This document shows, one piece after another, positions 12,497 through 51,014 of a stretch of 54,475 nucleotides of DNA; positions within the stretch are counted from its first letter, which is position 1; every line of letters begins with the position of its first letter. The notes under the pieces are model-generated. The model searched no databases. It was not told where the DNA came from and worked only from the letters and a program-made list of their open reading frames with translations. The position numbers were made by a program, and so were the translations under genes. The DNA is taken from assembly GCA_013298625.1 (NCBI GenBank), contig JAAFIF010000068.1:1-54475 (forward strand), given 5' to 3'. This DNA is from Myxococcales bacterium (GTDB taxonomy: Bacteria > Myxococcota_A > Polyangia > Polyangiales > Ga0077539).

Positions 12497-12552
12497 TCGC
12501 GAACGAACCTCGACAACGATTCTAGACTCCGCCCCTGCAGAGGGCCACTCCG

Positions 12553-14649
12553 ATGAACCTTCGCTCGCAGACTGAGCTCATCTCCGCTTTTCTGGCGCTC
12601 TCGATCGTCGCGGGGGTGCTCTTGCGCGAGCGCAAGCGGCGGCTCCACTGGCTGTTCGCGGCGTTCGGCGGGACCGTCGGGCTCTGGTTCGCGGCGCTGT
12701 TTCTCCGCACGCGGTTTCCGTCGGTCACGCTGTGGTCGCACCTCGCGTCGGTCTCGCTGGTGATCTTGCCGCAGTTCGGCGTGCGGTCGCTGCGAGCGTT
12801 TCTCAGCGAGTCCGCGCTCAAGCCGAGCCGGCTGCTCGCGTGGGCCACGGGGCTCGGCGTCCCGCTGCTCGTGCTCGCGATCTCGCCCTGGCACGCGCAC
12901 ACGGCCGCCAAAGCAGCGCTGTCGATCTACGTCGTGGGGCTCTTCGCCGCGCTCGCGTGGGAGTTCTTCACGAAGTCCCGCGCGGCGCCGTCGCGCGTCG
13001 AGCGCGCGCGCGCGGGCTATCTCGCGGGTGTCTCCGCTGCGACGACGGTGGTGTTCTTCACGGACCTCCTGCCGTTCACGGGCATCGACGTCGGACCGGT
13101 CGGGACGACGCTGGTCTTGATCGTCTTGTTCATGCTCTCGCAAGTGATGGAACGCTCGCGGCTCGTGGACCTCTACGAGCTCACCGCGCGCCTGGTGGTG
13201 CTCACCGCCCTCGCGTTCGTGCTGGCTGGCGTCTACTACCTGCTCGTGGACTGGGCGCGCGGACAAGCGCCGTACGTGCTCAACGCGATCGTGGCCTCGC
13301 TGGTGATCTTGATTCCGCTCGATCCGCTGCGGGCCAAGACCGAGGCGCAGGTGGCGCGGTTCTTCTTTCGCGAGCGCTTCGACTTGGAGTCGACGGTGGA
13401 CGCGCTGCGCTCGAAGCTCGCGCACGTGCTCGAGCTCGACGAGCTCGGACGAGAGCTCATCGACGGCCTCGCGGCCTCGCGAAGGGTCACCAACGCGGCG
13501 CTGTACTTCGCGGACGCGGAGCGCAAGGGGCTCGATCGGTTCGTGCATTTGGGCGCGGTTCCGCCGGACCGAATCGAGTTTGCGTCGGTGCGGCCGCTGC
13601 TCGATCGCGTGGCGCGCGACGGCGCGGCAGTGGCCGAGCAGCTCGAGCGAGACGCGAGCGACGCGCGCGAGCGCGGAGAGATCCGCGAGGCCGTCGAGCT
13701 CAGCGAGGTGTCCGCGCACTTGCGACGGCACATGGCGTCCGTGGCGATCCCTGTGCTCGACGCGCAGAACCAGCTCGTCGGGATGCTCTTGCTCGGAGAC
13801 GACCGGATCGCAGAGCCGTTCAGCGCAGAAGAAGTGCAGATCCTGCGGTCGCTCGGCGCGCAGATCTCGGTCGTGCTCGAGAACACGCAGGGGCACTTGC
13901 GGATCAAAGAGCGCGATCGATTGGCGGCGATGGGCGAGATGGCCGCGGGTCTCGCGCACGAGATCCGCAACCCGCTCGGCAGCATCAAGGCCGCCGTGCA
14001 ATTGATGCAACCGCAGGCGGTCTCGGGGACGACCGAGGCCGAGTACCTCGGGATCATCGCCGAGGAGGTCGATCGGCTCGACCGCGTGGTGCGCAACTTC
14101 CTCGACTACGCGCGGCCGGGAAAGGGCGACTCCGAGCTGGTCGACCCGCGCGAGGCCGTGCAGCGGACGTTGCAGATCGTGCAGAGCGATCTGCCTGGGA
14201 CGGTGCAGGTGCACTTCGTGGCGGAGCAGGATGTTCCGGCGGTGCGGATGGACCCTGCGCACTTGCGGCAGGTGGTGATGAACCTCGTGCGCAACGCGGT
14301 CGAGGCGATGGACTCGAAGGGCAGCGTGACGGTGGTGGTGCAGCGCAAGGCGAGCGGTCCGGCGATGGCCGAGATCGTCGTGCGCGACTCGGGGCCGGGC
14401 ATCGACGCGAAGCTGGTTCCGAAATTGTTCACGCCGTTCGTGACGACGAAGGCGCACGGGACGGGCTTGGGGCTCGCGATCTCGCAGCGGCTCGTGGCGG
14501 GCGTCGGCGGCCGCATCGAGCTGCGCACGCAGAGCGGAAGAGGGACGACGTTTGTCGTGGCGATCCCGGCGGCCGAGACAGCGCGCGAATCGGGGCGGCC
14601 GAGCCTCGCGCCGGCGGCGAGCCGCGGCGAAGACGCGGCGCGGGCGTAG
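12553..14649 (+). CDS. sensor histidine kinase (multi-TM N-terminal domain, GAF, HisKA, HATPase_c)
   Basis: H-box MGEMAAGLAHEIRNPLGSIKAAVQL; N/G boxes NLVRNAVEAM, VRDSGPGID, GTGLGLAISQRLV; N-terminal hydrophobic helices. Confidence 0.85.
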   Translation: MNLRSQTELISAFLALSIVAGVLLRERKRRLHWLFAAFGGTVGLWFAALFLRTRFPSVTLWSHLASVSLVILPQFGVRSLRAFLSESALKPSRLLAWATGLGVPLLVLAISPWHAHTAAKAALSIYVVGLFAALAWEFFTKSRAAPSRVERARAGYLAGVSAATTVVFFTDLLPFTGIDVGPVGTTLVLIVLFMLSQVMERSRLVDLYELTARLVVLTALAFVLAGVYYLLVDWARGQAPYVLNAIVASLVILIPLDPLRAKTEAQVARFFFRERFDLESTVDALRSKLAHVLELDELGRELIDGLAASRRVTNAALYFADAERKGLDRFVHLGAVPPDRIEFASVRPLLDRVARDGAAVAEQLERDASDARERGEIREAVELSEVSAHLRRHMASVAIPVLDAQNQLVGMLLLGDDRIAEPFSAEEVQILRSLGAQISVVLENTQGHLRIKERDRLAAMGEMAAGLAHEIRNPLGSIKAAVQLMQPQAVSGTTEAEYLGIIAEEVDRLDRVVRNFLDYARPGKGDSELVDPREAVQRTLQIVQSDLPGTVQVHFVAEQDVPAVRMDPAHLRQVVMNLVRNAVEAMDSKGSVTVVVQRKASGPAMAEIVVRDSGPGIDAKLVPKLFTPFVTTKAHGTGLGLAISQRLVAGVGGRIELRTQSGRGTTFVVAIPAAETARESGRPSLAPAASRGEDAARA

Positions 14650-15529: not shown

Positions 15530-16358
15530 AGATGATCCCAGCGGCTACGCGCTCTGTCCGAACCTCGACGTCGAGCGCCTGGGGAGTGAGCGTCGCGCGG
15601 TCAATGTTGACGGAGGACACGTACAGATCGATCCGTCCCGGCGGGATGACCGCGCGAACAGCTGGCGACAAGGTGTACTCGCCGCGATCGCTACGAACGT
15701 TGCAAACGATGCTAGTGTCTTGCGAGGGCGCAGCGAAGCTGATGCGCAGCCGCACATCGCACGGCAGCGACGGACGTCGCCACCGAACCGTGAGCGAGTC
15801 GAAGACCGCCCGCGCCCGCCGGGAGGAGCCCGGCTCGGGCGATAGCAACTGGAGCGCAGGTGGAATGCGCAGCGAAGACGAGAAACGCGTCGTGCCGAGA
15901 CCGAGAGACTCGACGCGAACCGCGAGACCGTCGTTGGGTGTCGGTAGTGAAATCATGGCAAAGTAAGAATTCATGGCAGTGGGAGAGAACTCTTCGACCA
16001 AGCCAGACCACGATACTCGCACCGGTCCGACGGAGGCAGGTTGCTGGTCGTGAAAGACCGTGCGCGTCGAGCATTCTCCAAAGGCCCGTTCCTCAACGCG
16101 TCCAAACATGCCTCCACCGAACGAGAAGCGGCCCGCAGCGCCGTCGGCCCACGGACGCTCGGTGATCCAGAACCAACCAGCGAGAGGCCGCGGCGCAGTG
16201 GACCCGTCCGACCCGAGGCTTACGTCTGCGCGCTCGACGCCGGTGTCGACGACAACAGCATCGCGAGGATCGACATCCGCGTCGATTGCTGGGGTCACGG
16301 ACGCGCCGCACCCAACGAGCGTCGCGACCACCACGGATACGAGTGGACGTCCGCTCAT
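15522..16358 (-). CDS. hypothetical lipoprotein
   Basis: Start MSGRPLVSVVVATLVGCGAS (lipobox LVGCG). Its ATG overlaps the stop of the upstream Cys-rich gene (ATGA at 16355-16358). Confidence 0.5.
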   Translation of the reverse strand: MSGRPLVSVVVATLVGCGASVTPAIDADVDPRDAVVVDTGVERADVSLGSDGSTAPRPLAGWFWITERPWADGAAGRFSFGGGMFGRVEERAFGECSTRTVFHDQQPASVGPVRVSWSGLVEEFSPTAMNSYFAMISLPTPNDGLAVRVESLGLGTTRFSSSLRIPPALQLLSPEPGSSRRARAVFDSLTVRWRRPSLPCDVRLRISFAAPSQDTSIVCNVRSDRGEYTLSPAVRAVIPPGRIDLYVSSVNIDRATLTPQALDVEVRTERVAAGIIYE

Positions 16359-18775
16359 GGGCAATTCACGAACTCGCCCATGATTTGGAGTTTGCACAGC
16401 CCAGCCGCCACAACCAGCGGCGGCTGGCATTGAGCTGAGCCACACTGGTTATTGCATGCAGGTTGATCACATCCTCCGCACCCTTCGCAGGTGCTGCCGT
16501 TGCACACCAATCGAACGCCCGCACCGGTATCCCGACACCACTGCCCATCGCAGCATGGTTGCCCTGCCGATTGACCGCAGGCCTGGCACGTCACATCGGG
16601 CTGGCCCCCGCCGCCACTCGTGGCGGGATTGTGTCTCGGCAATAGCTGAGCGGTGGTGCAAGCAAAACCCGGCACGCAGCGCCGCGGGGACAGAGCGAAG
16701 GCAGGCACGGTTGCGCCACAGAACAGTGGCTCTTCGACCAAATCGACCATGCGGCGCTGCTCTGCAGGAAGTCCCGCGAAGAGCGGATTCGAAATATTTA
16801 CAAAGTCCTGAATCGGGGTGAGCGGCGGCAGCGGCTGGGCTCCGCTCGCACCGCGAATTCGATTGAAAGTGTTCGCAAGGTCCAAGTCGCAGCACATCTG
16901 ATTCGGACCGCCGCAGGGTTCGCACGTCCCTTGCGGTCCGCAGATTCCACCGGCTCGACACCGTGAACCTTGCGGGATGACCACATCCGAATCGGGAGAA
17001 CCGACCGGCGTATGCACGAACCCGCTTGCGCCAATCGCGGCCGGACAACAAATTTCGCCAAGGTCGCCGCAACGCGGCCCTGGAGTGGGGATGCCGGTCA
17101 CGTCGATGCTGTCGGCGAATCGGCGATCGAGGCACACGTTGGCTACGCACACGAGGTTCGGCGTGATGACGCCGCCGAACGCCGTCGGAGGCACATCGCC
17201 GATCGGGCCCGTTGGCGACACCCCTACGAACGGAGCTGACACCATCGACGCCCCGCAGGACGGAGCGTGCTTGTTATCGCGACCAGAGCAACACCGCTCG
17301 CCTTCTTGGCCACACGGCATACAAACGGTGGCGCGCTCGGTCTGTCGAAACGGCGCGCCAAACGTAGGAGTGACCGGAAACGGCCACGGACTCGCGACCA
17401 GCTCTGACCCAGCCATCGCAGTGCACTCAGTCCCCGACGGACAGCGGAGTGCTACCGGAATAGGATTTGCTACCGCAGAGAGCAGACTGAAGTCCTCCGC
17501 GATACCAGGATCGCAGCCGGCTCGGCAAACGCGCTGTGGCGAAGTCGGCGCTCCCGTCTGTCCTACCGGCTCGACAGGAACACAACGGCTCGGCGCCGAT
17601 CCGGTGTTGCAACAATCGCGGTCCTGATCGCAACCCTGTCCCGGAGCTCGGCAGCACCGAAACTGACCGAAAGAAATGTTCAGCCCGTTCGGTGCTGCCG
17701 CCGCATTGTCCGCGCGACACGCGTCGTTGTTCAACCGACACGGATTTACGTTGTCCGCCGGACTGCCTGCCACTGGCGACTCCGCTGGCGTGTAGACGCG
17801 AGTGCTGGTATCGACGTAGGCATAGCGCGACGGTCGCGCGTCCGGTGGCAGCCGACACGTGCCGTCCGGTCGTCGGTCCGCAGCAGGACACCATTCAGCC
17901 CTAGCAACGGTGTCGAGCACCGAGCGCGTCTCGTAGCTTGCCGGTGGCGCGCACGTCTCCCCGTGTGGACTGTCACGCACGCAAACGTTTACCAATCCAC
18001 TCAGAGGATTGCCAGACGTTCGCAGATGCGGCTCACATCGGTAGTCGTAGGAGATCGGCGGACCCGCGGCCGTTGCGGCAAGCGTCTGTGGCGGCTGGCA
18101 GGCGTTCAACCCGCCGACGGCCGAATCGCACCGACGCATACAGACCCTGCCAGTCGCGCCATCAAGCCGACGCATGCAGACCATGCCCGGTCCGCACGCG
18201 CGACACGGTTGAGCCGCACCGCCCGCGACGACTCCGGTCCACTCCCCGTCACAGGTCGCGCCCTCTGTGATCGCGCCGATACACATGCCCGGAGCGTTGG
18301 GAGCATTTGGCACGCCAGCGGCGAAGCAACTTGCAGGGCGGCAGTGCTGAAACGGCTGCTGGGTACACGCGCTGTTCGCCGACCCGAGCGGTTGCATTGG
18401 ATCACAGTACGGTGACGCGAGCGCTCCGTCGAGGGGCGCGATCGACTGGCATGTTCCCATGTTCGGTAGACAACTCGAAGTGTCGCCGCACGGCTGACAA
18501 CGCATGTTGGGCCCGCAGACAAGCGGCACTCCTAGATTCTGCGGGTTGCACGGATCGAAGTCACAAGGAGCACCGACTCGCGTCGTGACGTCTGCGCATT
18601 GCCCGACGCAGACTTTGCGCTGCCACGGTCTGCATGCTGCGAGAAAGCCCCTCCCGGGATTCGCAAATGGATCGATCGTCGGCGGACAGCCAGTCAAGAC
18701 TAGCAATCCGACCAAGCTGATCCAGGAAAAGCCGAAGCTGACACGAAGTCGAGCGCCAGAACTGCGGTTGCCCAT
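16355..18775 (-). CDS. large cysteine-rich lipoprotein, hypothetical
   Basis: Start MGNRSSGARLRVSFGFSWISLVGLLVLTGCPP (lipobox). About 100 Cys in CxxC, CxC and GxCxPC patterns. Confidence 0.6.
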   Translation of the reverse strand: MGNRSSGARLRVSFGFSWISLVGLLVLTGCPPTIDPFANPGRGFLAACRPWQRKVCVGQCADVTTRVGAPCDFDPCNPQNLGVPLVCGPNMRCQPCGDTSSCLPNMGTCQSIAPLDGALASPYCDPMQPLGSANSACTQQPFQHCRPASCFAAGVPNAPNAPGMCIGAITEGATCDGEWTGVVAGGAAQPCRACGPGMVCMRRLDGATGRVCMRRCDSAVGGLNACQPPQTLAATAAGPPISYDYRCEPHLRTSGNPLSGLVNVCVRDSPHGETCAPPASYETRSVLDTVARAEWCPAADRRPDGTCRLPPDARPSRYAYVDTSTRVYTPAESPVAGSPADNVNPCRLNNDACRADNAAAAPNGLNISFGQFRCCRAPGQGCDQDRDCCNTGSAPSRCVPVEPVGQTGAPTSPQRVCRAGCDPGIAEDFSLLSAVANPIPVALRCPSGTECTAMAGSELVASPWPFPVTPTFGAPFRQTERATVCMPCGQEGERCCSGRDNKHAPSCGASMVSAPFVGVSPTGPIGDVPPTAFGGVITPNLVCVANVCLDRRFADSIDVTGIPTPGPRCGDLGEICCPAAIGASGFVHTPVGSPDSDVVIPQGSRCRAGGICGPQGTCEPCGGPNQMCCDLDLANTFNRIRGASGAQPLPPLTPIQDFVNISNPLFAGLPAEQRRMVDLVEEPLFCGATVPAFALSPRRCVPGFACTTAQLLPRHNPATSGGGGQPDVTCQACGQSAGQPCCDGQWCRDTGAGVRLVCNGSTCEGCGGCDQPACNNQCGSAQCQPPLVVAAGLCKLQIMGEFVNCP

Positions 18776-19020
18776 TTCTCGAACTGCCCCAATCGTCGAA
18801 GGTTGCTTCGCATGCTGAAGGAGCGAACACAGCCTCTCCCCCAAACTTCGAGGAGACTCGCGTATCGCGACGCTCACGTCAAGGTCGGGCGGTCGAAAAA
18901 GCTCGCTGCGTCACGTTGGCTCCTGCGCTCGTGAAGAAACACCAGTGATGTCAGCGGTGGAATCATCGCTGCCTCGCGCTCTCTTCTCCCCTAGTCTCGG
19001 GGCAATTGCGCAGTACGCTC

Positions 19021-39355: not shown

Positions 39356-41185
39356 ATGCTCACCGATCGCGCGCGCCCCTCGGCGCTGACGGCGAAGACC
39401 CATCGCTCGACCGTTCGACCCTTCGCGCTGCTCGCCCTCGTCCCCGCGACGATCACCGCTGGTTGCGCTCCGGTCGCCTCCGACGCGCCCGCGCCCATGG
39501 CGATGCGAGTGCGCGTCCCGCAGATCACGCTCGATCGCCTCGACGCGCAGCTGCACTTGCGCGTGTTCGAGAAGACCGGCGACCTCGACTGCAACACCGC
39601 CACGGGCCGCGTCACGGGCACCAACGCGTACGAGACCATCGCGGGTCGCAACGTTCCGCCCAACGAGCGCTGCGATGCCACGCGCTGGGCGCAGCTTCGA
39701 ATGACCGCGGGAGAAGCCTCGCCCGTCGATACCTGCTTCGATAAGAGCATGCCGATGCAGCCGCAGCGCGTCCCCGGCGGCAAGCGCTACATCGTCCTCG
39801 TCGAAGGCTCTGGCACGACGCCCACCCCCGGCGGCGGAACGCGAACCCGCACCCTCGGCTCGGGCTGCGCCGTGGTCAACACCATGCCCGGCGCCACCGT
39901 CAGCGTCGCGATCGAGATGCAAGAGATCGCCGACGTGGGCGTGTGCGGCGACATGGTCGTCTCGTCCGACGAGGTCTGCGACGAGGGCATGGCCACGCCC
40001 ACGTGCAACGCGCGCTGCCGCATCCCCGAGATCACCGCGTCGGGCACGATGGGACCCAAGGGCCGCCCCTCGCTCGCGTGGTCGATGTCGAACAACATGG
40101 TCGTCGGCTTCGCGATGGCCGACACCGCCAGCGACCCGATGCTGCGCTTGCTGAGCCCCACCGGCGAGCTCATCACCAGCCCCGCGATCAACGCGCGAGA
40201 CAACCCCCTCGACGCCATGGCGCGCAGCGAGCAGTCCAACGTGCGCGTCGCGTCGAGCCCGACAGGCTACGCCGCGGTGTGGCAGACCCTCGAGTCCACG
40301 GCGTACAACATCAACGGCTTCGGGACGAACAACTTCGACGCGCCGGTCGCGCAGCAAATGCTCGTCAACCCGACAACCATGCCGGGCGTTCAAGGCATGG
40401 TGAACCCCGCCGTCGCCATCGGCGGGACGCGCGTGGTCTTCGTGTGGGAAGACTCGGACGCGCGAGTGATTCGCACGTCGAACACAACGCTGGCTGCGAC
40501 CACCGCGGCTCCCATGGCAGACACGCCGCTCGTGATCGCGGCGATGCCGGGGGGCTCCAACGGAGCGGCTCCAGTGATCGCGGCGCTCGCAGACGGCACG
40601 TTCGTCGTCGCATGGGTGGGCGGAGGCGTCGGCGCCAAGGACATCTACGCGGTCAAGCTCAGCGCTGCGGGCGTCGCGATGGGCACGCCCATCACCGTCA
40701 ACACGCAGACCGGCAACGACCAGGACCAGCCCGCGATCGGCACCAACGGAACAGACGTGGTGATCGCGTGGCGCGACGCGAGCCTCGGCGATCCGATGGA
40801 CATGAGCGGGAGCGCGGTGCGCTTTCGGCACTTCAACGGCTCGCTCACCCCGAGCGGGATGGACCACCTCGCGCCCACGACGGTCGAGGGAGATCAGTCG
40901 AATCCCACCGTCGCGATGGCGTCCACCGGGACGTACTTCGTCGGCTGGCAGCACGCGGGCGGGACCATTCGGGGCCGGCTCTTTCGCGCGGACGGCGCGC
41001 TCGTGGTCAATCGCTTCAACGCGAGCACCGCGGACTTCGAGGCCAACGCGAGCGCCGACGAGATGGGGCCCGCCGGAGGAAACAGGCAGTTTCCGTCCGC
41101 TGCTTTCGGCGGCGCGGGTCGCTTCGCGGTCGGCTGGCTCGACGGCGCGAGCAACGATATTCGTGTGCGCGTATTCATCGAGTGA
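39356..41185 (+). CDS. lipoprotein with myxobacterial Cys-rich repeat and beta-propeller-like repeats
   Basis: ALLALVPATITAGC lipobox; CGDMVVSSDEVCDEGMATPTCNARC. Its stop overlaps the start of the kinase gene. Confidence 0.65.
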   Translation: MLTDRARPSALTAKTHRSTVRPFALLALVPATITAGCAPVASDAPAPMAMRVRVPQITLDRLDAQLHLRVFEKTGDLDCNTATGRVTGTNAYETIAGRNVPPNERCDATRWAQLRMTAGEASPVDTCFDKSMPMQPQRVPGGKRYIVLVEGSGTTPTPGGGTRTRTLGSGCAVVNTMPGATVSVAIEMQEIADVGVCGDMVVSSDEVCDEGMATPTCNARCRIPEITASGTMGPKGRPSLAWSMSNNMVVGFAMADTASDPMLRLLSPTGELITSPAINARDNPLDAMARSEQSNVRVASSPTGYAAVWQTLESTAYNINGFGTNNFDAPVAQQMLVNPTTMPGVQGMVNPAVAIGGTRVVFVWEDSDARVIRTSNTTLAATTAAPMADTPLVIAAMPGGSNGAAPVIAALADGTFVVAWVGGGVGAKDIYAVKLSAAGVAMGTPITVNTQTGNDQDQPAIGTNGTDVVIAWRDASLGDPMDMSGSAVRFRHFNGSLTPSGMDHLAPTTVEGDQSNPTVAMASTGTYFVGWQHAGGTIRGRLFRADGALVVNRFNASTADFEANASADEMGPAGGNRQFPSAAFGGAGRFAVGWLDGASNDIRVRVFIE

Positions 41186-43146
41186 TGGCTGAGTCCGAGC
41201 GCAAAGCAGGAGCCGTCATCGCCCATCGCTACACGCTCGAGCGTCAGCTCGGGGAGGGAGCGTTCGGCGAGGTGTGGATCGCCACCGACGCGAAGGCGTT
41301 CGGCCGTCGCGTCGCCGTGAAGTTTTTGCTTCAGCAGCACCTCGCCAACGAAGAGGTCGTGCGGAGGTTTCAGCAAGAAGGCCAGGCGACCGCGGCGCTC
41401 TCGCACCCCAACGTCGTGGCGCTGCTCGAGTTCGGCGAGGACGCGCAGCACATCCCGTATCTGGTCAGCGAGTTCGTCGAGGGCGAGCCGCTGCGACGGG
41501 TGCTCGACCGCTGCGTCGAAGAGAAGCGCTTGCTGCCCGTCGACGACGTGCTCGCGATCTTTCGACAGGCGTGCGCAGGGGTGCTCGCAGCGCACCAGAA
41601 GAAGATCGTTCATCGGGACCTCAAGCCCGAGAACATCATGGTGCAAAACATCGGGACGCCCGCGGTCGTCGTGAAGGTCCTCGACTTCGGCGTCGCGCGC
41701 ATCCTCGGCAAAGACAGCCAACAATCCCTCGGCCGCACCGAGGTCGGAAAGATCATCGGCTCGCTTCAGTACATGTCCCCCGAGCAAGTGCTCGGCGACG
41801 TGCGCAGCATCGATCGACGCACGGACATCTTCGCGATGGCCGCGGTGCTGTTCGAGTTGTTCGCGCAGCGCCCCGCGTTCGACGGCGGCTCGTACCAAGA
41901 GGTGATCGGCAAGATCCTCGACCCCAATCGACCGAAGCTCGCCGCGCTTCGACCCGACGTTGGCCCCGCGCTCGACCCGGTCTTCGAACGGGCGTTCGCG
42001 ATGCACCGCGACCAGCGCTACGGCGAGGTCACCGAGCTGCTCGAAGCCGCCGAGCAAGCGCTCGCTGGGCACGTTCGACCGCGCAGAACCACGGGAATTC
42101 GCCAGCCGATCGTCGTCGTTCCAGACCTCTCGGGGCAGTGGGGCGCGGCGAAAGAAGCGCCGCCTACGCAAGAAGTCGAGCAGCCGCGCAAGAGCAACGC
42201 AAACGCCGAGGTCACCGTCGACGAAGAGCTGCCCGAAGAGCAGCCGACAGGGCGACCGTGGCTCGTGTTTTTGACGGTGTTCGTTGTCGTCGCCGTCGGC
42301 GGTTCGCTCGCTGGGACCGCGCTCGTCCGTCGTCGCAACGCGCAGCTCGCGGACGCCGACGCGGGCGCGGCCGCGACGCCCATCGTCGACGCCGCCGCCG
42401 CGCGCTCGTCGTGGACCGCGCCGCCCGAAGACGCCGCGCAGTGGGCGCTCGTCGATGCCCCTGCGGCGCCTGTCGCGCTCGGTCGCGCGCGTCCCACGGA
42501 CGATCGCGGAGGCTTGCTGCCCGCAGCGCACGCGCAGTTCGCCGGACCGTCGTTTCGGATCATGAAGCGCGAGGTCACCTACGGTGAGTTCGAGCCCTGG
42601 TACGAAGCCAATCAGCCACAGCCGCTGCGGGTGCCATCTTGGGTTCCGTCGCTCGCAGAAGCGCGCGCGGCGCTGCCCGTGGTCAACGTGTCGTGGGCCA
42701 GCGCGCGGGCGTACTGCGAGGCCATCGGCGCGACGTTGCCGAGCGAAGAGCAGTGGGAGTTCGCGGGCCGCCGCGCCACGGGCAGACTCGACCCGTGGAC
42801 GGGCCCAGCTCCCGCGGATTTGCCTGCGTTTCAACCGGGCAGAGGGCGCTTGCAGCCCGTCGGCTCGTACGCCGCGGACGTCACCGAAGAGGGCATCTCG
42901 GGACTCGCGACCAACGGCACCGAGTGGACGCTCTCGCCGTATCGCGAGGACAACGGCAGCGAGCGCGCGGACTACGTCGGCTACTACGTCGTGCGCGGAC
43001 TGCCGCTCGTGCAGCCGTTGCCCGTTGCCGTCGTGCCTGCGTCGCTCTTGCACCGCAACGCGGGCTGCGCCAAGCCGGTGTGCGCCGTGAGCGAGCGCGA
43101 GATGATCGAAGACGTGGGATTTCGCTGCGTAAAGCCCACAGGATAG
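41185..43146 (+). CDS. Ser/Thr protein kinase fused via TM segment to C-terminal FGE-sulfatase (SUMF1-like) domain
   Basis: GEGAFGEVW, VAVK, HRDLKPEN, DFGVA; TM helix WLVFLTVFVVVAVGG. C-terminal FGE-like RIMKREVTYGEFEPW...NGTEWT...GFRCV. Confidence 0.85.
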   Translation: MAESERKAGAVIAHRYTLERQLGEGAFGEVWIATDAKAFGRRVAVKFLLQQHLANEEVVRRFQQEGQATAALSHPNVVALLEFGEDAQHIPYLVSEFVEGEPLRRVLDRCVEEKRLLPVDDVLAIFRQACAGVLAAHQKKIVHRDLKPENIMVQNIGTPAVVVKVLDFGVARILGKDSQQSLGRTEVGKIIGSLQYMSPEQVLGDVRSIDRRTDIFAMAAVLFELFAQRPAFDGGSYQEVIGKILDPNRPKLAALRPDVGPALDPVFERAFAMHRDQRYGEVTELLEAAEQALAGHVRPRRTTGIRQPIVVVPDLSGQWGAAKEAPPTQEVEQPRKSNANAEVTVDEELPEEQPTGRPWLVFLTVFVVVAVGGSLAGTALVRRRNAQLADADAGAAATPIVDAAAARSSWTAPPEDAAQWALVDAPAAPVALGRARPTDDRGGLLPAAHAQFAGPSFRIMKREVTYGEFEPWYEANQPQPLRVPSWVPSLAEARAALPVVNVSWASARAYCEAIGATLPSEEQWEFAGRRATGRLDPWTGPAPADLPAFQPGRGRLQPVGSYAADVTEEGISGLATNGTEWTLSPYREDNGSERADYVGYYVVRGLPLVQPLPVAVVPASLLHRNAGCAKPVCAVSEREMIEDVGFRCVKPTG

Positions 43147-43157
43147 CCCGCCGCGCT

Positions 43158-44858
43158 TCAGTGAATCGAGTAGCCGAGCGACACGACGGCTTGGCCGCCG
43201 ACGCCAAACGGCGGGCTCGCGGCGACGACCGTGTTGATTCCGCCGCCCATCGGCATGGTGGACATCTGCCGATCCCATCCTGCGGGGACCTGCGAGACCT
43301 CTCTGTTTCCCAAGCTGCCCGCCGCGGCGGGGTCGTTCTGCAGCAGTCGCAGCAAGAACAATCCGCGCACGTCGATGGCGACGAAGAGGCCCGCCACGAG
43401 GCGGATGGTGGAGCGATAGCTGAGCTGAGTCGCGAGCGCTCCGCCCGAGAATTCCCAGCCGACGCCGAGCCCGACGCGCCACGCGTGACGCTCGCTGACG
43501 CCCTGCTGCCCCACGTCGAGCACCGCGAGGTGCATCGGCGCGGTCGTGATGCACCAGCCCGGATCCGAGCGCGTCACCGAGCCTGTCATCTGCGACGGAT
43601 CGGGGCAGGGCCGCGGGTCCGTCGTGTTGCCGGACGCCCACGTGTTGCCCGGCCCGTACGTGTAGATCGCTGAGAGCGACAGGTCGCCCGCGATCAGCGT
43701 CGCGGCGCCAGAGACCACACCGTTGTTGTACGCCGCTTGCCCGGTGTGAATGGCCCGGTTGCTGTCCGTCGTCGTCATCGCAAACCCCGCGACGTACGCG
43801 TTGGGAAAGTACACGAACTGATACCCCCCGCCCGCGCTCAGCTGCACGCCAGGGCCGTGACCCCAACGCGTCGCTCGTCGCTCGGCCTCTTCTCTCGCCA
43901 GCTGCTCCCTCCGCAACCGCTCTTCTTCTGCCTGCGTCGCTCTCTCAGCGGCCACTCTCGCTTCGAGCGTCGGATCGATGCACCCGCGGTTGGCCTGATA
44001 CCGATACCCGTCGGGGCACACGACGTCGGCCACGCAGTTCGCGCCCTCCACGTGTGATCCCTCTGGGCAGCGGTTCGTCTGCACAACGCTCGCGACGCAC
44101 TGCCCGCTCTCTGCGCGAAAGCCCGCGTCGCACACGCACGATCGTCGCTCTCCGTCCCACCGCGAGTGCGTGATCGCGCTGCACACCGACCGGCACTGCC
44201 CGTCGATCCACTGCTCGCCCTCGACGCACACGTGGTCGGGCGCGCAGCGGTCTCCATCAACGTGATGCAGCGCCGGGCACACCAGCGGCGCGACGCACCC
44301 GCGGCCCTCGACGAACTGCGTGTTCGCTGGGCACGTCGGCGTCGCGACACAACCGCCCTCGGGCCGCCGCGTCGTGCCCGTGGGGCACGTCACGTCTTGC
44401 GATACGCACGCGCCGTTGGTGAGCACCGTCCCGCTCGGGCACGTCACGTCGGTGACGCAACGATTGCCGTCGAGCCTGCTGCCTTCGGGGCACGTGATCT
44501 GCGACATGCACTGGCCGTCGCGCCGCTCGGTCCCCGGCGGGCACGCGACCGCGTCCGCCACGCAACGGCTGCCCTCGGGGTGCGAACCCGAAGGACACAC
44601 GCGACGACCGACGCACGCGCGCTGCTGCTCGTTCCACGTGGTGCCAGCGGGGCAGCGAACGGTGGGCGGGGGCGCCTGCGCCGCGCCACAGCAGCCGTTG
44701 CTGTCGCGCACTTCGCCGACGAGGCAGGTGCGACGGCACTCTTGCGCGCTCGCCGTCGCGCTCACCGCAGTGGCCGTCAACAACGCCACTCCCCCGAGCA
44801 GCGCCGACGCGATCCCCGAGCTTGCCCTGCGAGTCTGCTGCGGTTTCACGCGCAGCAT
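43158..44858 (-). CDS. secreted Cys-rich repeat protein with C-terminal beta-rich domain
   Basis: Signal peptide ASALLGGVALLTATAVSATASAQ, followed by about 15 repeats of CPxGxxxxxGxCV. Confidence 0.65.
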   Translation of the reverse strand: MLRVKPQQTRRASSGIASALLGGVALLTATAVSATASAQECRRTCLVGEVRDSNGCCGAAQAPPPTVRCPAGTTWNEQQRACVGRRVCPSGSHPEGSRCVADAVACPPGTERRDGQCMSQITCPEGSRLDGNRCVTDVTCPSGTVLTNGACVSQDVTCPTGTTRRPEGGCVATPTCPANTQFVEGRGCVAPLVCPALHHVDGDRCAPDHVCVEGEQWIDGQCRSVCSAITHSRWDGERRSCVCDAGFRAESGQCVASVVQTNRCPEGSHVEGANCVADVVCPDGYRYQANRGCIDPTLEARVAAERATQAEEERLRREQLAREEAERRATRWGHGPGVQLSAGGGYQFVYFPNAYVAGFAMTTTDSNRAIHTGQAAYNNGVVSGAATLIAGDLSLSAIYTYGPGNTWASGNTTDPRPCPDPSQMTGSVTRSDPGWCITTAPMHLAVLDVGQQGVSERHAWRVGLGVGWEFSGGALATQLSYRSTIRLVAGLFVAIDVRGLFLLRLLQNDPAAAGSLGNREVSQVPAGWDRQMSTMPMGGGINTVVAASPPFGVGGQAVVSLGYSIH

Positions 44859-44892
44859 CGTGGCAGAAACGCCCCCCTGGCGCTACCGCAGG

Positions 44893-47415
44893 TTACTCCT
44901 TCGCGCCTTCGCCGAGGGCCTTCGGCTCGCGCCCCGCGACCTTCGCGAGCACATCCGCGACGGACGTCCCCGCGAGCAGCCGCCCGAGCACGTCGGACAC
45001 GCTCTCTCCGCCGAGGATCGCGAGCGGCGCCATGCTCTGGGCCATCTTCTCTGCGAGCGCGCGGTCTCCGAACGCTTGCAGCGCCGCGATGAGGTCCGGC
45101 GAAAACGCCTTCGCTTTCTCCGCCGCGGCCTTCACCTGCGCGTCGAGCTCGCGCAGCGTTCGGTCGCTCTCGGCGCGGGCCACTTCGTCGTCGAACTGCG
45201 CCCGCGCGCGCTCGCGGGCGAGCTGTGCGGTCGCGACCGAGTCGAGCAGCTGCTGCAGCGCGACCTCGGCCTTGTGTCGGTTCTCTCGGGTGTCTGCCTC
45301 GGCTCGAATGCGCGTGAGCTCGACCTCGTGCTTGCGCTCGACCTCGCGCCCTTCGATGTCGAGCAGCTGCAGCTTGGTGGTGGCTTCGAGCGTCGCGGAC
45401 TCTTGCCGCGTCGACTCGCGCGCGCGGGTGAGCTCGAGCCTCCTGCGCTCGGCGGCCACGGCCAACGCTTGCTGCACCGATGCGTGCTGGGCTTCGACGA
45501 GCAGCTTGGCGATGGTCTCGTCGCCGATCGAGACGCCGAGCACTTCGACGTCGTACACGCGCATGCCGTTCTCGCTGAAGCGTCGGCCTGGGCGCTTTCC
45601 GTCCTCGCCTTGCGCGCCGAGGATGATGTCTCGCACGATGGTGACGGCGTTGCCGTAGAAGTGCTCGACGCCGTGCTGCTTGACCGCGTGACGCAGCAGC
45701 GATCGCAGGTGATCCGTCAGGAATTTTACGTAGTTTTCTGCGGCGAACCACTGCGCGGGCTCGCCCTCGAAGTCGACCCTGTACGACAGGCGCATGTGCA
45801 CCTTCACGAGGTCGGTGGTCTCGGCTTCGACCAGGTCGCTGACCTTGTTGTTCTTCACGCGCAGGTACGCCGTGCGCATCAAGCGGTCGTCGCTCTTCGG
45901 CGTGCCGGTGCTGAGCTCCATCGCTTGCAGCGTCTCGTCGTACTCGAGCAAGAAGGTGGTGGGTCCCACTTCGACGCGGCGCTTTCCGGCGCGGGATTTC
46001 ACGAGCACGGCGTAGCCGGTCCACAGGTCGATCGAGACCGCGCCCTCGAAGCGGTTGTCGAGCACGATGGTGCGCGGCGGCGTGAACGTTTGATTTCGTG
46101 TGACCGCGTCGCCGACGAAGGCCGCTTCGGTCTTGGCGCGCTCGTTGGGCTCTGGCGCCTTGCGTTGACCGGCTTGCCGCGCCTCGTCGTCGATGACGAA
46201 CTCGTTGCCCGCCTCGCTGCGCTTGAGCGCCGAGAGCCGCGCGTTGTACTCGAGCGCCTCTTTGTTGCCGGGAAACAGCAGCTCGACGTTCTTCGGGTCG
46301 AGCACCTTGCGCACGATCACCTCGCGGCGCGGGTCCGGCAGAAACACCGTGGGGCCGCGCTCGAGGCGGATGTTGCCCTGCGTGCGATCGAGGACGTACC
46401 GCGCTTCACCGGCGGGGATCGCCACGCCGTAGTGAATCTCGCGGCCGCCGTAGCGGATCATCGCGTGCTCGGGGCGAGGAAAGTAGATCATCTGCTCGCG
46501 GCCGGTGATGAACAGCTCGTCGCCGACCTTGTAGCTCTTGCCGCCCTCGTCGTAGGGCGCGATCACCTTCACGTAGACGCCCGAGATTTCGGTCAGCTCG
46601 ATCGCGCGAAACTTACGGCTCGCGTTGCGCTCGATGAAGGTCTCGGTCGGCCGAGGAAACACCACCGCGGGCCCCTGGATGAACCGCTTGTTGCCGTCCT
46701 CGTCGAGCAGGATCGTGTACTCGAGCCGCTCGAGCGTGACCGCGTCGCGCACGTACTTGCCCTGCTCGTCCGCGACGATCTCGATGCCCGTCGGCGGAAT
46801 GTAGAAGCTCACGTCCGTCCCACGGATCACCAGGTGTTTGCCCATGGTGAGCTCGGGCACGTTCTTCGACGGGTCGAGCACGCCTTGCTCCGTCGCTTCG
46901 GCGAGCGCGTCGCCGCCGGGCGTGGTCTGCCGCTTGATGACCGCCTTGGCCCAGTTGGTCTTCGCCGCCTCTTCGTCGTACACGCGCACGAGCAGGTACT
47001 GATTGGACCGAAGGCTGTGGCCGGGGACCACCTTCACCATCTGTCCCGGCCAGAGCGCGTACGAGACCGGGCCGGGCGTGTTGACCTTGCGGCCCACGTC
47101 GAGGTCCGGGAGGTTGTTGAGCGCCCCGGTGCGCGGGTGCGAGCTGTCCCGCGCGGGGTTCTTCAGGACCAGGTACCAGCCCTCTGGAGCGACGGCGTGC
47201 ACGCCGATCGCCTGCTCGAGCGTCACGCGCTTGAAGCGCTTGGTGTCGTAGTCGAACACCACGGGCTGATCCGTGTTGGCGAGGCTCGTCTTGTGCGGCC
47301 CCACGTACACGTTGATGTTGCCCTTGGTCTCGTCCGAGATGAACGCGAACTCGTTGGGCGCCAACACCAGATCGCGCTCGCGCCCACGCTCTCGTCCCAG
47401 ATCCCTCTCGTTCAT
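44893..47415 (-). CDS. major vault protein (MVP) homologue, full length
   Basis: The N-terminus EFAFISDETKGNINVYVGPHKTSLANTDQPVVFD...NPARD parallels human MVP [41 protein letters not shown]...NPVSRD. The shoulder (TTDLVKVHMRLSYRVDFEG...VEHFYGNAVTIVRDIILG), the cap-helix coiled coil and the C-terminal cap ring also align. Confidence 0.8.
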   Translation of the reverse strand: MNERDLGRERGRERDLVLAPNEFAFISDETKGNINVYVGPHKTSLANTDQPVVFDYDTKRFKRVTLEQAIGVHAVAPEGWYLVLKNPARDSSHPRTGALNNLPDLDVGRKVNTPGPVSYALWPGQMVKVVPGHSLRSNQYLLVRVYDEEAAKTNWAKAVIKRQTTPGGDALAEATEQGVLDPSKNVPELTMGKHLVIRGTDVSFYIPPTGIEIVADEQGKYVRDAVTLERLEYTILLDEDGNKRFIQGPAVVFPRPTETFIERNASRKFRAIELTEISGVYVKVIAPYDEGGKSYKVGDELFITGREQMIYFPRPEHAMIRYGGREIHYGVAIPAGEARYVLDRTQGNIRLERGPTVFLPDPRREVIVRKVLDPKNVELLFPGNKEALEYNARLSALKRSEAGNEFVIDDEARQAGQRKAPEPNERAKTEAAFVGDAVTRNQTFTPPRTIVLDNRFEGAVSIDLWTGYAVLVKSRAGKRRVEVGPTTFLLEYDETLQAMELSTGTPKSDDRLMRTAYLRVKNNKVSDLVEAETTDLVKVHMRLSYRVDFEGEPAQWFAAENYVKFLTDHLRSLLRHAVKQHGVEHFYGNAVTIVRDIILGAQGEDGKRPGRRFSENGMRVYDVEVLGVSIGDETIAKLLVEAQHASVQQALAVAAERRRLELTRARESTRQESATLEATTKLQLLDIEGREVERKHEVELTRIRAEADTRENRHKAEVALQQLLDSVATAQLARERARAQFDDEVARAESDRTLRELDAQVKAAAEKAKAFSPDLIAALQAFGDRALAEKMAQSMAPLAILGGESVSDVLGRLLAGTSVADVLAKVAGREPKALGEGAKE

Positions 47416-47530
47416 GACGTGCCGTCCTCCGATGCTCAGTGACTGAGCGAAACTAGACTTAGTTGCATAGTGAAACTAAGTCAACACGGGCCCATTGTTT
47501 CTCCGACGGTTTGCTACCCTCGCGCCCCTG

Positions 47531-49447
47531 ATGCACGCAGAACCCACGGCTACACCGAGCGCGCCGACGAAGGCTCCCGACGGCGTCGACCCCGAGCTCC
47601 ATTGGTACAAGACCGTCTACCAGGGCGACACGCAGGCGCAGTTTACGCTGCGCTCGTTCTTGATGGGCTCGGCGCTCGGCGCGTTCATGGCCCTCTCGAA
47701 CCTGTACGTGGGGTTGAAGACCGGCTGGGGCTTGGGCGTCGCGATCACGGCGTGCATTTTGTCCTTCGCGGTCGGCAGGGGCTTTCAGGCGATCGGCCTG
47801 TTCAAGACCAACCTGTCGTTGCTCGAGAACAACGCGATGGCGTCGACCGCTTCTTCCGCGGGGTACTCGACGGGCGGGACGATGGTCTCGGCGATGTGCG
47901 CGTACCTGCTGGTGAAGGGCTCGCACATGCCGTGGCCGTTGCTCATGGCGTGGACGTTCTTGTTGGCCGTGCTCGGGACGGTGATGGCCATCCCGATGAA
48001 GCGCCAGATGATCAACGTCGAGCAGCTGCAGTTTCCGAGCGGAACCGCCGCCGCTGAGACGCTGCGCTCGCTCTACTCTGCGGGCGAAGAGGCGAGCCAG
48101 AAGGCGCGCTCGCTCTTCGCTGCGATGGGCGTCGGCGCGATCCTCGCGTGGCTCCGTGACGCGCACGCGGCGAGCACGACGGGCGCGCTCGCGCTGCTCA
48201 CGAAGCTCTCGAAGGTGCCTGCGACCTTTGGCATTCCCGGGCTGAAGATCGCGGGGCAGCCCGCGCTCTCGTGGACGATCGGCTTCGAGGGCTCGCTCAT
48301 CATGGTCGCCGCGGGCGCGATGATGGGCCTGCGCACGACGATCTCGATGGTGGTCGCCGCGCTGATCAACTACGGCGTGCTCGCGCCGAAGATCCACGCG
48401 ATGGGCGGGATCACCCGTATTTCGTACCGTGGAATCGTCTCGTGGTCGCTCTGGCCTGGCGCGGCGCTGATGGTGACCTCGGGGCTGCTCACGTTCGCGT
48501 TTCAGTGGCGGACGATCATGCGCGCGTTCTCGGGGCTCGGCGCGCTTCGCAAGAAGAAGCCGGGCGAGGGCGCGCCGTACCGCGAGGGCAGCGAGGTGAC
48601 CGAGAAGGACCAGATGGCGGCGATCGAAGTGCCGACGAGCTGGTTCGGCGCGGGGATGCTCTTCGCCACCGTTGGGCTGGTGATCGTTGGATACCTTGGC
48701 TTCGGCATCGCGCCGTGGCTCTCGGTGTTGGCCGTGCTGCTCTCGTTCATCCTGTCGATCGTCGCGTGCCGCGCGACGGGCGAGACCGACACGACGCCGG
48801 TCGGCGCGATGGGAAAGATCACGCAGCTCACCTACGGAGTTCTCGCGCCGGCGAACGTGACGACCAACTTGCTCACGGCGAGCATCACGGCCGGAGCCGC
48901 CGGAAGCGCTGCAGATTTGCTGACGGATTTGAAGTCTGGCTACCTGCTCGGCGCCAACCCTCGCAAGCAGTTCCTCGCGCAGTTCTCGGGGACGTTCGTC
49001 GGGACGCTCGTGGTCGTGCCCGCGTTCTATCTGCTCGTGCCCAACGCCAACGCGCTCGGCGGTGATCGCTTTCCCGCGCCCGCCGCGCAGGTGTGGAAGG
49101 GCGTCGCCGAAGCGCTCTCGCACGGCGTGCACTCTTTGCACCCGACGGCGCGCTGGGGAATGCTCGGCGGAGCCATCGTCGGGCTCATCCTGCCGACGCT
49201 CGAGCTCTTGTTTCCGAAGCACAAGAAGTACATCCCCAGCTCGATGGGCCTCGGCCTCGCGCTGGTGATTCCCGCGTGGAACTCCATCAGCATGTTCATC
49301 GGCGCCCTCCTCGCGTACGCCTTCGCGCGCGCCAACGAGAAGAAGGCCGAGACGTACACGATCCCGGTCGCCTCGGGGATCATCGCCGGCGAGTCGCTGC
49401 TCGGCGTGGCAATCGCGTTGATGGGCGCTGTGGGGTGGCTCTCTTGA
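47531..49447 (+). CDS. OPT-family oligopeptide transporter
   Basis: About 16 TM segments. The OPT-like N-terminus is WYKTVYQGDTQAQFTLRSFLMGSALGAFMALSNLYVGLKTGWGLGVAITACILSFA. The track start 47495 is TTG. Confidence 0.8.
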   Translation: MHAEPTATPSAPTKAPDGVDPELHWYKTVYQGDTQAQFTLRSFLMGSALGAFMALSNLYVGLKTGWGLGVAITACILSFAVGRGFQAIGLFKTNLSLLENNAMASTASSAGYSTGGTMVSAMCAYLLVKGSHMPWPLLMAWTFLLAVLGTVMAIPMKRQMINVEQLQFPSGTAAAETLRSLYSAGEEASQKARSLFAAMGVGAILAWLRDAHAASTTGALALLTKLSKVPATFGIPGLKIAGQPALSWTIGFEGSLIMVAAGAMMGLRTTISMVVAALINYGVLAPKIHAMGGITRISYRGIVSWSLWPGAALMVTSGLLTFAFQWRTIMRAFSGLGALRKKKPGEGAPYREGSEVTEKDQMAAIEVPTSWFGAGMLFATVGLVIVGYLGFGIAPWLSVLAVLLSFILSIVACRATGETDTTPVGAMGKITQLTYGVLAPANVTTNLLTASITAGAAGSAADLLTDLKSGYLLGANPRKQFLAQFSGTFVGTLVVVPAFYLLVPNANALGGDRFPAPAAQVWKGVAEALSHGVHSLHPTARWGMLGGAIVGLILPTLELLFPKHKKYIPSSMGLGLALVIPAWNSISMFIGALLAYAFARANEKKAETYTIPVASGIIAGESLLGVAIALMGAVGWLS

Positions 49448-49466
49448 GCGTACCCTGCGCCGCACG

Positions 49467-51014
49467 ATGCACAGCATTCCCGAACTGATCGCCGTCTCGA
49501 AGGACTCGCTCTCTCACGAAGCCACCGCGTTCGACGCGCTCATCGTGGTGAGCGCATCGCCGCTGGGGGACTACCTCGACAAGCTCGCGCTGCCTGGGGA
49601 CGCGCGCGCGGTCATCGAGTCCGTGCTCGGCGCAGATCGCGCCTTCGCGCGCGGCGCGCAGGGGCCTGTGGTGCTGCCGTCTGCGGGCGTTCCGGGCGGC
49701 AGGCTCGTGCTCGCGACGTGCAACGCGATGGGCGATGACACCGACGACGTTCGCCTCGTCGCCGAGACGGTGACCGCCGCGATGAACCGCGCCGTCGCCG
49801 CGGGCGCGCGCAGGCCCATGATCACCGTCGCGACGCCCGATGACAGCAAGTACCACCGCGCGCTCGACGTCGCCGCGCTGGCTGCGCTCGGCTCGCAGTG
49901 GCACGCGCTCGAAGCGCGCGAGGCGAAGAAGGCAGCGGACCCCGCGACGGGCGTCGCCATCGTCGGCCTCGACCCCGCTCGAGCCACCTACCTCCGCGGC
50001 GTCGAGCTCGGCCGCGCGCTCGGCCGAGACATCACCGGAACCGAGCCCGAACGCATGGCCCCCATGCGCGCAGCGCAGCTCTGCGAGGCTTCGTTTGCAG
50101 GCACCGGCGTGCGCGTGAAGATCCAGACCGACACCAGCGCGTACCCGCTGCTCAGCGCCGTCGCGCGCGCGTCCAACGTCGTCGAGCGCCACCGCCCGTG
50201 CGTCATCGAGCTCGAGTACACGCCCGAAGACGGGACCTTCTCTCGCACGCTCTACCTCGCAGGAAAGGGGCTCACCTACGACACCGGCGGCGCGGACCTG
50301 AAGGTCAACGGCGCGATGGCCGGCATGTCCCGCGACAAGGGCGGCGCTGGCGCCGTCGCTGCGTTCGTCCGCGCCTGCGCCGCGGCGAAGCTGAAGGGCA
50401 CGCGCGTCGTCGCGTTGCTCGGCATGGTGCGCAACTCGATCGGTGAAGAGTCGTTCGTCAGCGACGAGGTGATCACCTCTCACGCTGGCGTCCGCGTGCG
50501 CATCGGCAACACCGACGCCGAAGGCAGGCTCGTGCTCGCGGATCTCCTCTCGGACCTGCGCGGCCGCGCCAAGGCCGACGGTGGAGAGAGCGTGATCGCA
50601 TCGCTGGCCACACTGACGGGCCATGTGATCCGCGCGTTCGGCCCGTACGTGGGCGCGATCGAGAACAAAGCCTCCCGCGATCGAGGGATCATCGCGCAGC
50701 TCGTCGACTGCGGAGAGCGCTGGGGAGAGCCCTTCGAGTGGACCCGCGTCCGTCGCGAGGACTACGCGTTTTGCGCGGCGAAGACCAACGCAGAAGATTT
50801 GGTGTCCAGTAATCGACTCGCCAGCGTGGACACCATGCGCGGCCACCAGGGACCGTTCGCATTTCTCGACGCCGCGAGCGGGCTGAAGGGCAGCGGGCTT
50901 CCGTACGTTCACCTCGATATCGGCGGAGCTGCGTTTCTTCCGCTCGACTGGCAGTTCGGTCGGCCGACGAGCGCGCCGTGCGTCGCGATGCTCGCGTGGT
51001 GCGCTGGCGAGTGA
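49467..51014 (+). CDS. leucyl aminopeptidase, M17 family
   Basis: LAGKGLTYDTGGADLK and NTDAEGRLVLAD, the M17 signature. Confidence 0.85.
   Translation: MHSIPELIAVSKDSLSHEATAFDALIVVSASPLGDYLDKLALPGDARAVIESVLGADRAFARGAQGPVVLPSAGVPGGRLVLATCNAMGDDTDDVRLVAETVTAAMNRAVAAGARRPMITVATPDDSKYHRALDVAALAALGSQWHALEAREAKKAADPATGVAIVGLDPARATYLRGVELGRALGRDITGTEPERMAPMRAAQLCEASFAGTGVRVKIQTDTSAYPLLSAVARASNVVERHRPCVIELEYTPEDGTFSRTLYLAGKGLTYDTGGADLKVNGAMAGMSRDKGGAGAVAAFVRACAAAKLKGTRVVALLGMVRNSIGEESFVSDEVITSHAGVRVRIGNTDAEGRLVLADLLSDLRGRAKADGGESVIASLATLTGHVIRAFGPYVGAIENKASRDRGIIAQLVDCGERWGEPFEWTRVRREDYAFCAAKTNAEDLVSSNRLASVDTMRGHQGPFAFLDAASGLKGSGLPYVHLDIGGAAFLPLDWQFGRPTSAPCVAMLAWCAGE

Follow-up and report, generated by a model that had tools for sequence, protein, structure and literature searches.

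The contig JAAFIF010000068.1 of a Myxococcales bacterium (assembly GCA_013298625.1), whose 54,475 nucleotides (nt) form the window analysed here, encodes on its minus strand an 840-residue protein that is clearly a true homologue of the eukaryotic major vault protein (MVP), possessing MVP-type repeats, an SPFH-like shoulder, a cap-helix and a cap-ring-like tail. We consider it rather probable (roughly 0.6) that this MVP-like protein is a self-assembling cytoplasmic cage, either vault-like or SPFH-like, which is encoded by a stand-alone gene and constitutes a divergent sister of eukaryotic MVP. Its homology, domain order, fold, solubility and distribution, and the absence of a conserved partner gene, are established below. 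The protein represents no new kind of object; it is an ordinary member of a catalogued and surprisingly large family.

Among the Pfam models, MVP_shoulder (PF11978) matched residues 522-632 with 87.4 bits (cut-off 25, E 9.3e-25) over profile positions 2-118 of 118, and it was likewise present in 28 of 28 relatives. Vault_3 (PF17795), which describes the R9-type repeat just before the shoulder, matched residues 477-512 with 33.1 bits (cut-off 28.8). The models Vault (PF01505), Vault_2 and Vault_4 gave no match at E<=10; in the 28 relatives Vault was found weakly four times (best E 0.035) and Vault_4 once. The score of Band_7 (PF01145) was 17.4 bits, under its cut-off of 23.6, and was better in some relatives (best E 1.1e-6). 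Human MVP, used as a control, matched Vault, Vault_2 and Vault_4 strongly and lacked a Band_7 match.

The identity between the MVP-like protein and human MVP (the sequence used is identical to PDB chain 11dr_A over all 893 residues) is 22-24%. BLASTP aligned query residues 192-618 with human residues 246-633 (22% identity, E 4e-13), and a profile of 28 family sequences recovered rat MVP from the Protein Data Bank (PDB) at E 3.7e-23 (query 464-774, rat 465-808). The first-pass annotation had proposed an alignment with MVP along the whole length. This is borne out by a profile of diverse family members (115 representatives of 39-52% identity, drawn from 150 found by an exhaustive hidden Markov model (HMM) search), for which hhalign reported 99.9%, E 3e-32 and 689 columns between query 14-799 and human 6-829, extending in global mode to query 840 and human 876. 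It does not hold for less sensitive comparisons: a single-sequence phmmer search against PDB yielded no MVP match even at E<=10, a shallow profile (28 sequences, >=61% identity) covered only query 225-835 (99.0%), and with that profile the first 235 residues taken by themselves gave no significant match (E about 0.02). Even in the diverse alignment the stretch of query 92-181 is compressed.

Structure prediction displays the same dependence on alignment depth. The AlphaFold2 (AF2) model built from the shallow alignment had a predicted local distance difference test score (pLDDT) of 51, with the N-terminal half below 50, and the model from the diverse alignment reached 83.5, with the repeat region and the shoulder above 90. 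In the latter, the N-terminal half is predicted to adopt the MVP repeat fold of tandem small antiparallel beta-sheet modules. Foldseek ranked vault chains in its first 12 places (E 1.5e-34 to 1.3e-27, 860-946 columns) and independently matched the crystal structure of murine R1-R7 (7e-16), and SPFH cage proteins followed as the next-best structural matches. The proposed homology is thus upheld by PF11978, Vault_3, hhalign and Foldseek alike, and the vault matches in profile and fold searches indicate that the similarity is not confined to the coiled coil.

The profile alignment places the domains in the order of MVP (Table 1). YVGPHKT stands opposite human EVGP-KT, LKNPARDS opposite VANPVSRD, GKHLVIRG opposite GEEWLVTV and GDELFITG opposite GDHWLIRG, all in register, and VEHFYGNAVTIVRDIIL is aligned with human FDDFHKNSARIIRTAVF. 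The N-terminal motifs, shoulder, cap-helix and cap-ring segment that had been named from the sequence were accordingly recovered in register. Segment profiles found collinear human counterparts for R1, R6, R7, R8 and R9 (E 2e-9 to 7e-5; R9 against human R9, E 1.8e-9), and the secondary-structure string of the AF2 model suggests eight to nine modules in the repeat region. Residues 58-216 have diverged, falling short of human R2-R5 by about 75 residues, and a low-confidence loop (residues 419-449) lies at the position of the R8 loop. The cap-helix equivalent, rich in Ala, Glu, Arg and Leu, is aligned with human 648-795; of the tail, residues 769-799 lie opposite the human cap-ring region 800-829 in the local alignment, and columns 773-816 are invariant or nearly so in one alignment of family members.

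Conservation across 116 family sequences is highest in R5-R8 and R9 and lowest in the cap-helix, with R1 well conserved. The MVP-like protein has neither a cysteine, a signal peptide nor a transmembrane (TM)-like segment. Its maximal 19-residue Kyte-Doolittle mean is 1.32, and none of the 116 family members exceeds 1.6. Fused extra domains were absent from the ten longest family members.

The most constrained charged position lies in the LSTGTPK motif, which is aligned with the human keyhole loop LSAGRPK (500-506). In the 116 sequences (39-52% identity) K507 is invariant (116/116) and the sole invariant charged residue, S502 is likewise invariant, P506 is retained in 111, and G504 in at least 90%. 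The human keyhole loop is an MVP-specific elaboration of the SPFH domain and lines an NAD+/ADP pocket between adjacent subunits, where K506, the human counterpart of K507 in our alignment, contacts the diphosphate of NAD+ (PMC12280208). By analogy, a ligand with a phosphate group may be bound between adjacent subunits of the bacterial protein by a conserved, lumen-facing loop and its invariant lysine. Of the human pocket, H509, R511, W545, P565 and K573 are not conserved in the family, and we therefore treat ligand binding as a hypothesis rather than a finding. The invariant lysine in 116 diverse bacterial sequences provides a concrete, testable handle on function.

By homology, many MVP-like subunits would pack laterally, with their N-terminal beta-repeats forming a thin barrel wall and the SPFH-like shoulder narrowing the barrel. 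The 136-residue helices would bundle into a cap, which the conserved C-terminal segment would close. The result would be a cage around a lumen, either vault-like with two cups or SPFH-like with one. Our commitment to a cage derives from the solved MVP and SPFH relatives, which build large closed assemblies of laterally packed subunits with a cap made up of their long helices, in combination with the solitary helix and the low-confidence tail; oligomeric assembly, cage geometry and ligand binding are all inferred by analogy with such relatives.

Several observations weigh against a cage of this kind. The 90 or so residues of query 92-181 lie opposite about 167 human residues (69-235) in a poorly aligned stretch, from which we conclude that the protein lacks one or two repeats or has them in shortened form, and the compression of R2-R5 implies that the particle geometry must differ from that of the mammalian vault. 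The residues F6, R9, D39 and R42, which join the two halves of the mammalian vault at its waist, are not conserved in the family. Most residues of the NAD+ pocket besides the loop lysine differ, in places from basic to acidic (H509 to D, K573 to D). The C-terminal segment was modelled with low confidence (pLDDT 34-61), as would be expected if it folds only in the oligomer, and the AF2 prediction comprised the monomer only. Finally, no experimental particle of any bacterial MVP-like protein was found in the literature searched.

The main rival to a free cage is a single SPFH-type dome docked on the cytoplasmic membrane, where it would organise or shield membrane proteins in the manner of HflK/C, QmcA, flotillin or prohibitin. 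The SPFH-like shoulder speaks for such a dome, as do the weak Band_7 similarity in this protein and in 20 of the 28 relatives, the name 'SPFH domain-containing protein' given by NCBI to the Enhygromyxa salina orthologue, the rank of SPFH cages directly behind vaults in the structural search, and the lack of the mammalian waist residues. We nevertheless regard the membrane-docked dome as unlikely, given that a TM-like segment was found in none of the 116 family members and that the MVP-like protein provides neither a signal peptide nor a cysteine for lipidation. Moreover, about 500 residues of MVP-type repeats occupy the place where SPFH proteins have their membrane anchor, genes for NfeD or FtsH partners are absent from the vicinity, and the well-conserved R1 fits an R1 interface.

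Less likely still is that no cage is formed at all, and that the protein acts as a monomer or small oligomer, e.g., as a nucleotide-binding or scaffold protein in which the fold was kept for another use. The invariant lysine loop could bind a ligand on its own, assembly is deduced only by analogy, and the repeat region rather than the cap-helix is the most conserved part. However, all relatives of known structure, MVP and SPFH proteins alike, assemble into large rings or closed structures, a lone 136-residue helix is unlikely to be stable without bundling, and the human pocket is situated between two adjacent subunits (PMC12280208). A self-assembling cytoplasmic cage therefore remains our preferred reading of the MVP-like protein.

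The first-pass annotation regarded bacterial MVP homologues as rare and uncharacterised. The former is contradicted by the size of the family. In a first homology search the family comprised more than 6,700 clusters at 90% identity. The top 120 all have lengths of 810-900 amino acids (aa), come mostly from Myxococcota and are in many cases named 'major vault protein' by JGI, as is a cluster representative 98% identical to the protein of the window. The exhaustive HMM search yielded 1,662 clusters at 50% identity (E<=1e-3), including 767 at E<=1e-30, the 150 top-ranking ones matching the profile along most or all of its length. Relatives occur in at least 282 species, a count obtained with only two peptide patterns and a single genome for each species, and their hosts include Polyangiales, Nannocystaceae, Desulfonema (Desulfobacterota), Chloroflexota, Riflebacteria, Ozemobacteraceae, Moduliflexus, Sericytochromatia and Bacillota. 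In addition, 285 IMG/VR viral contigs, many of them 100-436 kb in length, carry full-length relatives with 42-52% identity.

The description as uncharacterised seems right, as only in silico work was found in the literature searched, and the family is already recognised by Pfam, by JGI and in several such papers. Bacterial MVPs were mentioned by Daly et al. 2012/2013; Sokolskyi 2019 (bioRxiv 10.1101/872010) analysed an E. salina protein and pointed out the Band-7 similarity of bacterial MVPs; a 2023 preprint described two phage MVPs (bioRxiv 10.1101/2023.11.10.566534); and Asgard homologues were described in 2026 (Nat Microbiol, PMC12962969) in a paper that still refers to 'only a few Bacteria'. 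That phrase greatly understates the size and spread of the family, and hundreds of viral contigs carry MVP-like genes, against only two phage MVPs in the literature. On one of these contigs (L081, 2962-5493) the MVP-like gene is located between SbcD-like and SbcC-like phage nuclease genes, and on another (L084, 3001-5499) it adjoins genes for a phage-type helicase and an M23 peptidase. The patchy distribution of the family among phyla might be due to its carriage by phages.

One might suspect that the gene was acquired recently from a eukaryote by horizontal transfer, as vaults are classically eukaryotic and myxobacteria have other eukaryote-like traits such as sterol synthesis. The distribution of identities to a single eukaryotic sequence, human MVP, argues against it: the 270 family members sampled all show 22-32% identity to this sequence (median 24.4%, at most 109 bits), and none is close to eukaryotes. 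The family's range over Myxococcota, Desulfobacterota, Chloroflexota, Riflebacteria, Sericytochromatia, Bacillota and others points in the same direction. So does the gene region itself, whose guanine-plus-cytosine (GC) content of 0.65-0.70 lies inside the range of the window (0.61-0.73) and whose locus is syntenic in relatives. Furthermore, the published tree separates MVPs of chemotrophic bacteria from a clade of eukaryotes and cyanobacteria (10.1101/872010). Taken together, we consider such a recent transfer extremely improbable.

Downstream of the MVP-like gene lies a gene for a cysteine-rich protein of 566 aa, in which the first-pass annotation saw a possible partner or cargo. Its N-terminus is basic, then hydrophobic, and ends in ASA|QE, which is predicted to be a signal peptide of about residues 1-38. 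Of its 32 cysteines, 30 are contained in about 13 tandem CPxG...C units (residues 41-293), followed by a charged helical linker (300-332) and a C-terminal domain rich in Gly, Ala, Val and Ser. Pfam and NCBIfam provided nothing above threshold for it (NCBIfam has no model for the MVP-like protein either), searches of Pfam and PDB gave sub-threshold noise of the DUF5874/TIL-like kind, and no PDB relative was found. A database of 5.8 billion proteins contained 16 matches, about 13 of them convincing.

A functional two-gene module of a cage with its partner or cargo would be in accordance with the shared strand, the 34-nt gap without a predicted terminator, and the recurrence of the pair with a short gap (33-58 nt) in four related genomes. 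We examined 80 MVP loci by tblastn over 10-kb flanks for the Cys-rich gene, which follows the MVP-like gene in only four of them (L001-L004). Their MVP-like proteins are the four nearest to that of the window (76-91% identity, L001 being the closest), and the OPT transporter (4/4), the M17 aminopeptidase (3/4) and the kinase (3/4) are retained there as well. As the surrounding genes are largely syntenic in these four loci, the adjacency of the two genes adds no information. In the other 76 loci, where MVP identity is 67% or less, the pair is absent and the gene downstream varies or is lacking. About 13 Cys-rich homologues stand against more than 6,700 MVP-like clusters, and an exported protein with 32 cysteines against a cytoplasmic, cysteine-free one.

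We regard the two-gene module as very unlikely and as largely refuted by this distribution; neither the role of partner or cargo nor the conservation of the arrangement is supported. The Cys-rich gene is better interpreted as a lineage-specific neighbour than as a functional partner, and it may share a transcript with the MVP-like gene. Co-transcription is plausible from the short gap, and no terminator-like site or hairpin was found on the minus strand within it. All-against-all clustering of the open reading frames (ORFs) within 8 kb in the 80 loci revealed no conserved neighbour family. Ser/Thr kinases were considered as operon partners and rejected as chance neighbours: they occur in 16 of 80 loci, their position and strand vary, and they are abundant in Myxococcota. 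In E. salina SWB007 (L023), a 309-aa ORF with 29 cysteines and a lipoprotein-like N-terminus (about 12485-13415, plus strand) lies 46 nt downstream of the MVP-like gene. It was not recovered by tblastn as a homologue of the Cys-rich protein of the window, and we consider its adjacency probably a coincidence because Cys-rich exported proteins are common in Myxococcota.

The gene positions and lengths, the common strand, the short gap and the divergent upstream OPT transporter agree with the initial description (Table 1). An M17 leucyl aminopeptidase gene follows 19 nt after the OPT gene; both (47495-51014, plus strand) diverge from the MVP-like gene, are syntenic in L001-L003 and plausibly form a pair for peptide uptake and degradation. 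On the other side, 11 nt separate the Cys-rich gene from a convergent gene for a Ser/Thr protein kinase (41185-43146, plus strand), for which synteny is kept in L001, L003 and L004. A predicted TM segment joins the kinase to an FGE-sulfatase domain (sulfatase-modifying-factor-like) at the C-terminus. The kinase gene starts with a one-base overlap on the stop of the ORF directly before it (about 39359-41185, plus strand), whose 609-aa product has a lipoprotein-like N-terminus (…ITAGC) and matches no Pfam family; the two are apparently translationally coupled. A second 840-aa ORF (16355-18877, minus strand) was considered as an MVP-like paralogue and rejected, the sequences being unrelated. To judge from the fragments compared, which include cysteines and, close to the N-terminus, a hydrophobic segment, this ORF may encode an exported protein that contains cysteines. 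The window proteins matched neither PADLOC defence-system models nor PHROGs phage-family models. Rfam (all curated families) gave nothing at threshold over the whole 54-kb window, and hence no vault RNA; TEP1 and PARP4 were not searched for.

Table 1. Positions of the MVP-like gene, its domains and adjacent features in the window.
Feature	Position	Strand	Remarks
Cys-rich gene, 566 aa	43158..44858	-	ORF list; neighbour confined to its own lineage, not part of a conserved system
Intergenic gap, MVP-like/Cys-rich, 34 nt	44859..44892	-	From sequence; 33-58 nt wide in L001-L004, where the locus is syntenic
MVP-like gene, 840 aa plus stop	44893..47415	-	ORF list; product predicted to be soluble and cytoplasmic, Cys-free
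C-terminal segment, cap-ring equivalent, residues 769-840	44896..45111	-	Conserved motif SPDLIAALQAFGDRALAEKMA.SMAPLAILGGES
Cap-helix equivalent, residues 633-768	45112..45519	-	One unbroken 136-residue helix (DSSP on AF2 model)
Shoulder (SPFH-like), residues 521-632	45520..45855	-	PF11978 at 522-632; pLDDT 90-97
STGTPK of the LSTGTPK motif, residues 502-507	45895..45912	-	Aligned with human keyhole loop LSAGRPK, 500-506
N-terminal beta-repeat region, residues 14-520	45856..47376	-	Equivalent of MVP R1-R9, probably 8-9 modules
OPT transporter	47495-49447	+	Pfam OPT E 2.6e-89; divergent, 79 nt from start of MVP-like gene

The function of vaults has been open for almost forty years, and the bacterial homologues offer a genetically simple system in which to approach it; the origin of MVP likewise bears on eukaryogenesis. 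The MVP-like family is an attractive and experimentally untouched target, while the idea of a locus-specific Cys-rich partner fails. We tentatively entertain that bacterial and phage MVP-like proteins form true vault-type cages in the prokaryotic cytoplasm and that, as the invariant keyhole-loop lysine would then show, the binding of ADP-ribose/NAD-type nucleotides between subunits is an ancestral and conserved activity of vaults, which is a possible rather than a probable scenario. If true, the ancestor of the eukaryotic vault would be a nanocompartment widespread among bacteria or phages, and the purpose of vaults could be learned from a tractable bacterial system.

Among known proteins, the closest counterparts are the bacterial MVPs of the E. 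salina type, which share Vault_3, MVP_shoulder and a weak Band_7 similarity at a length of 810-850 aa. The E. salina protein of 10.1101/872010 (A0A0C2D5V5 / KIG17060.1) is 64% identical to the MVP-like protein over 98% of its length. The latter, which comes from an uncultured Polyangiales-like metagenome-assembled genome, differs in nothing substantive from the bacterial MVPs of Myxococcales and Cytophagales, and only its small clade shares its gene neighbourhood. Eukaryotic MVP (PDB 4V60, 4HL8, 9BW5, 9Z4W, 11DR) has the same domain order, with R9 starting near residue 460 and the shoulder near 520, as well as a long cap-helix, a cap-ring-like tail and the LS.G.PK keyhole motif, and the common fold is supported for both halves of the protein. 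It differs in sequence (about 24% identity), in matching the Vault, Vault_2 and Vault_4 models, in an R2-R5 region longer by about 75 residues, and in its waist and most NAD+-pocket residues. The mammalian vault is a 78-mer with D39 symmetry, whereas the cage is predicted here.

The cages of SPFH/Band-7 proteins (HflK/C, QmcA, stomatin, prohibitin, flotillin, erlin) are membrane-anchored, unlike the MVP-like protein, which instead bears about 500 residues of beta-repeats before its SPFH domain, falls short of the Band_7 cut-off and has no NfeD or FtsH genes nearby. The Asgard MVP homologues (PMC12962969) likewise possess repeats, shoulder and cap-helix, and are likewise known from prediction alone. 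They are described as possessing five repeats each, half of the proteins falling together with the MVPs of eukaryotes, in contrast to the eight to nine repeats suggested for the MVP-like protein, which belongs to the bacterial clade. The phage-encoded MVPs (10.1101/2023.11.10.566534) are full-length relatives in the same bacterial family; the locus in the window differs from theirs in the lack of any phage context, its neighbours being cellular genes that are syntenic in related genomes.

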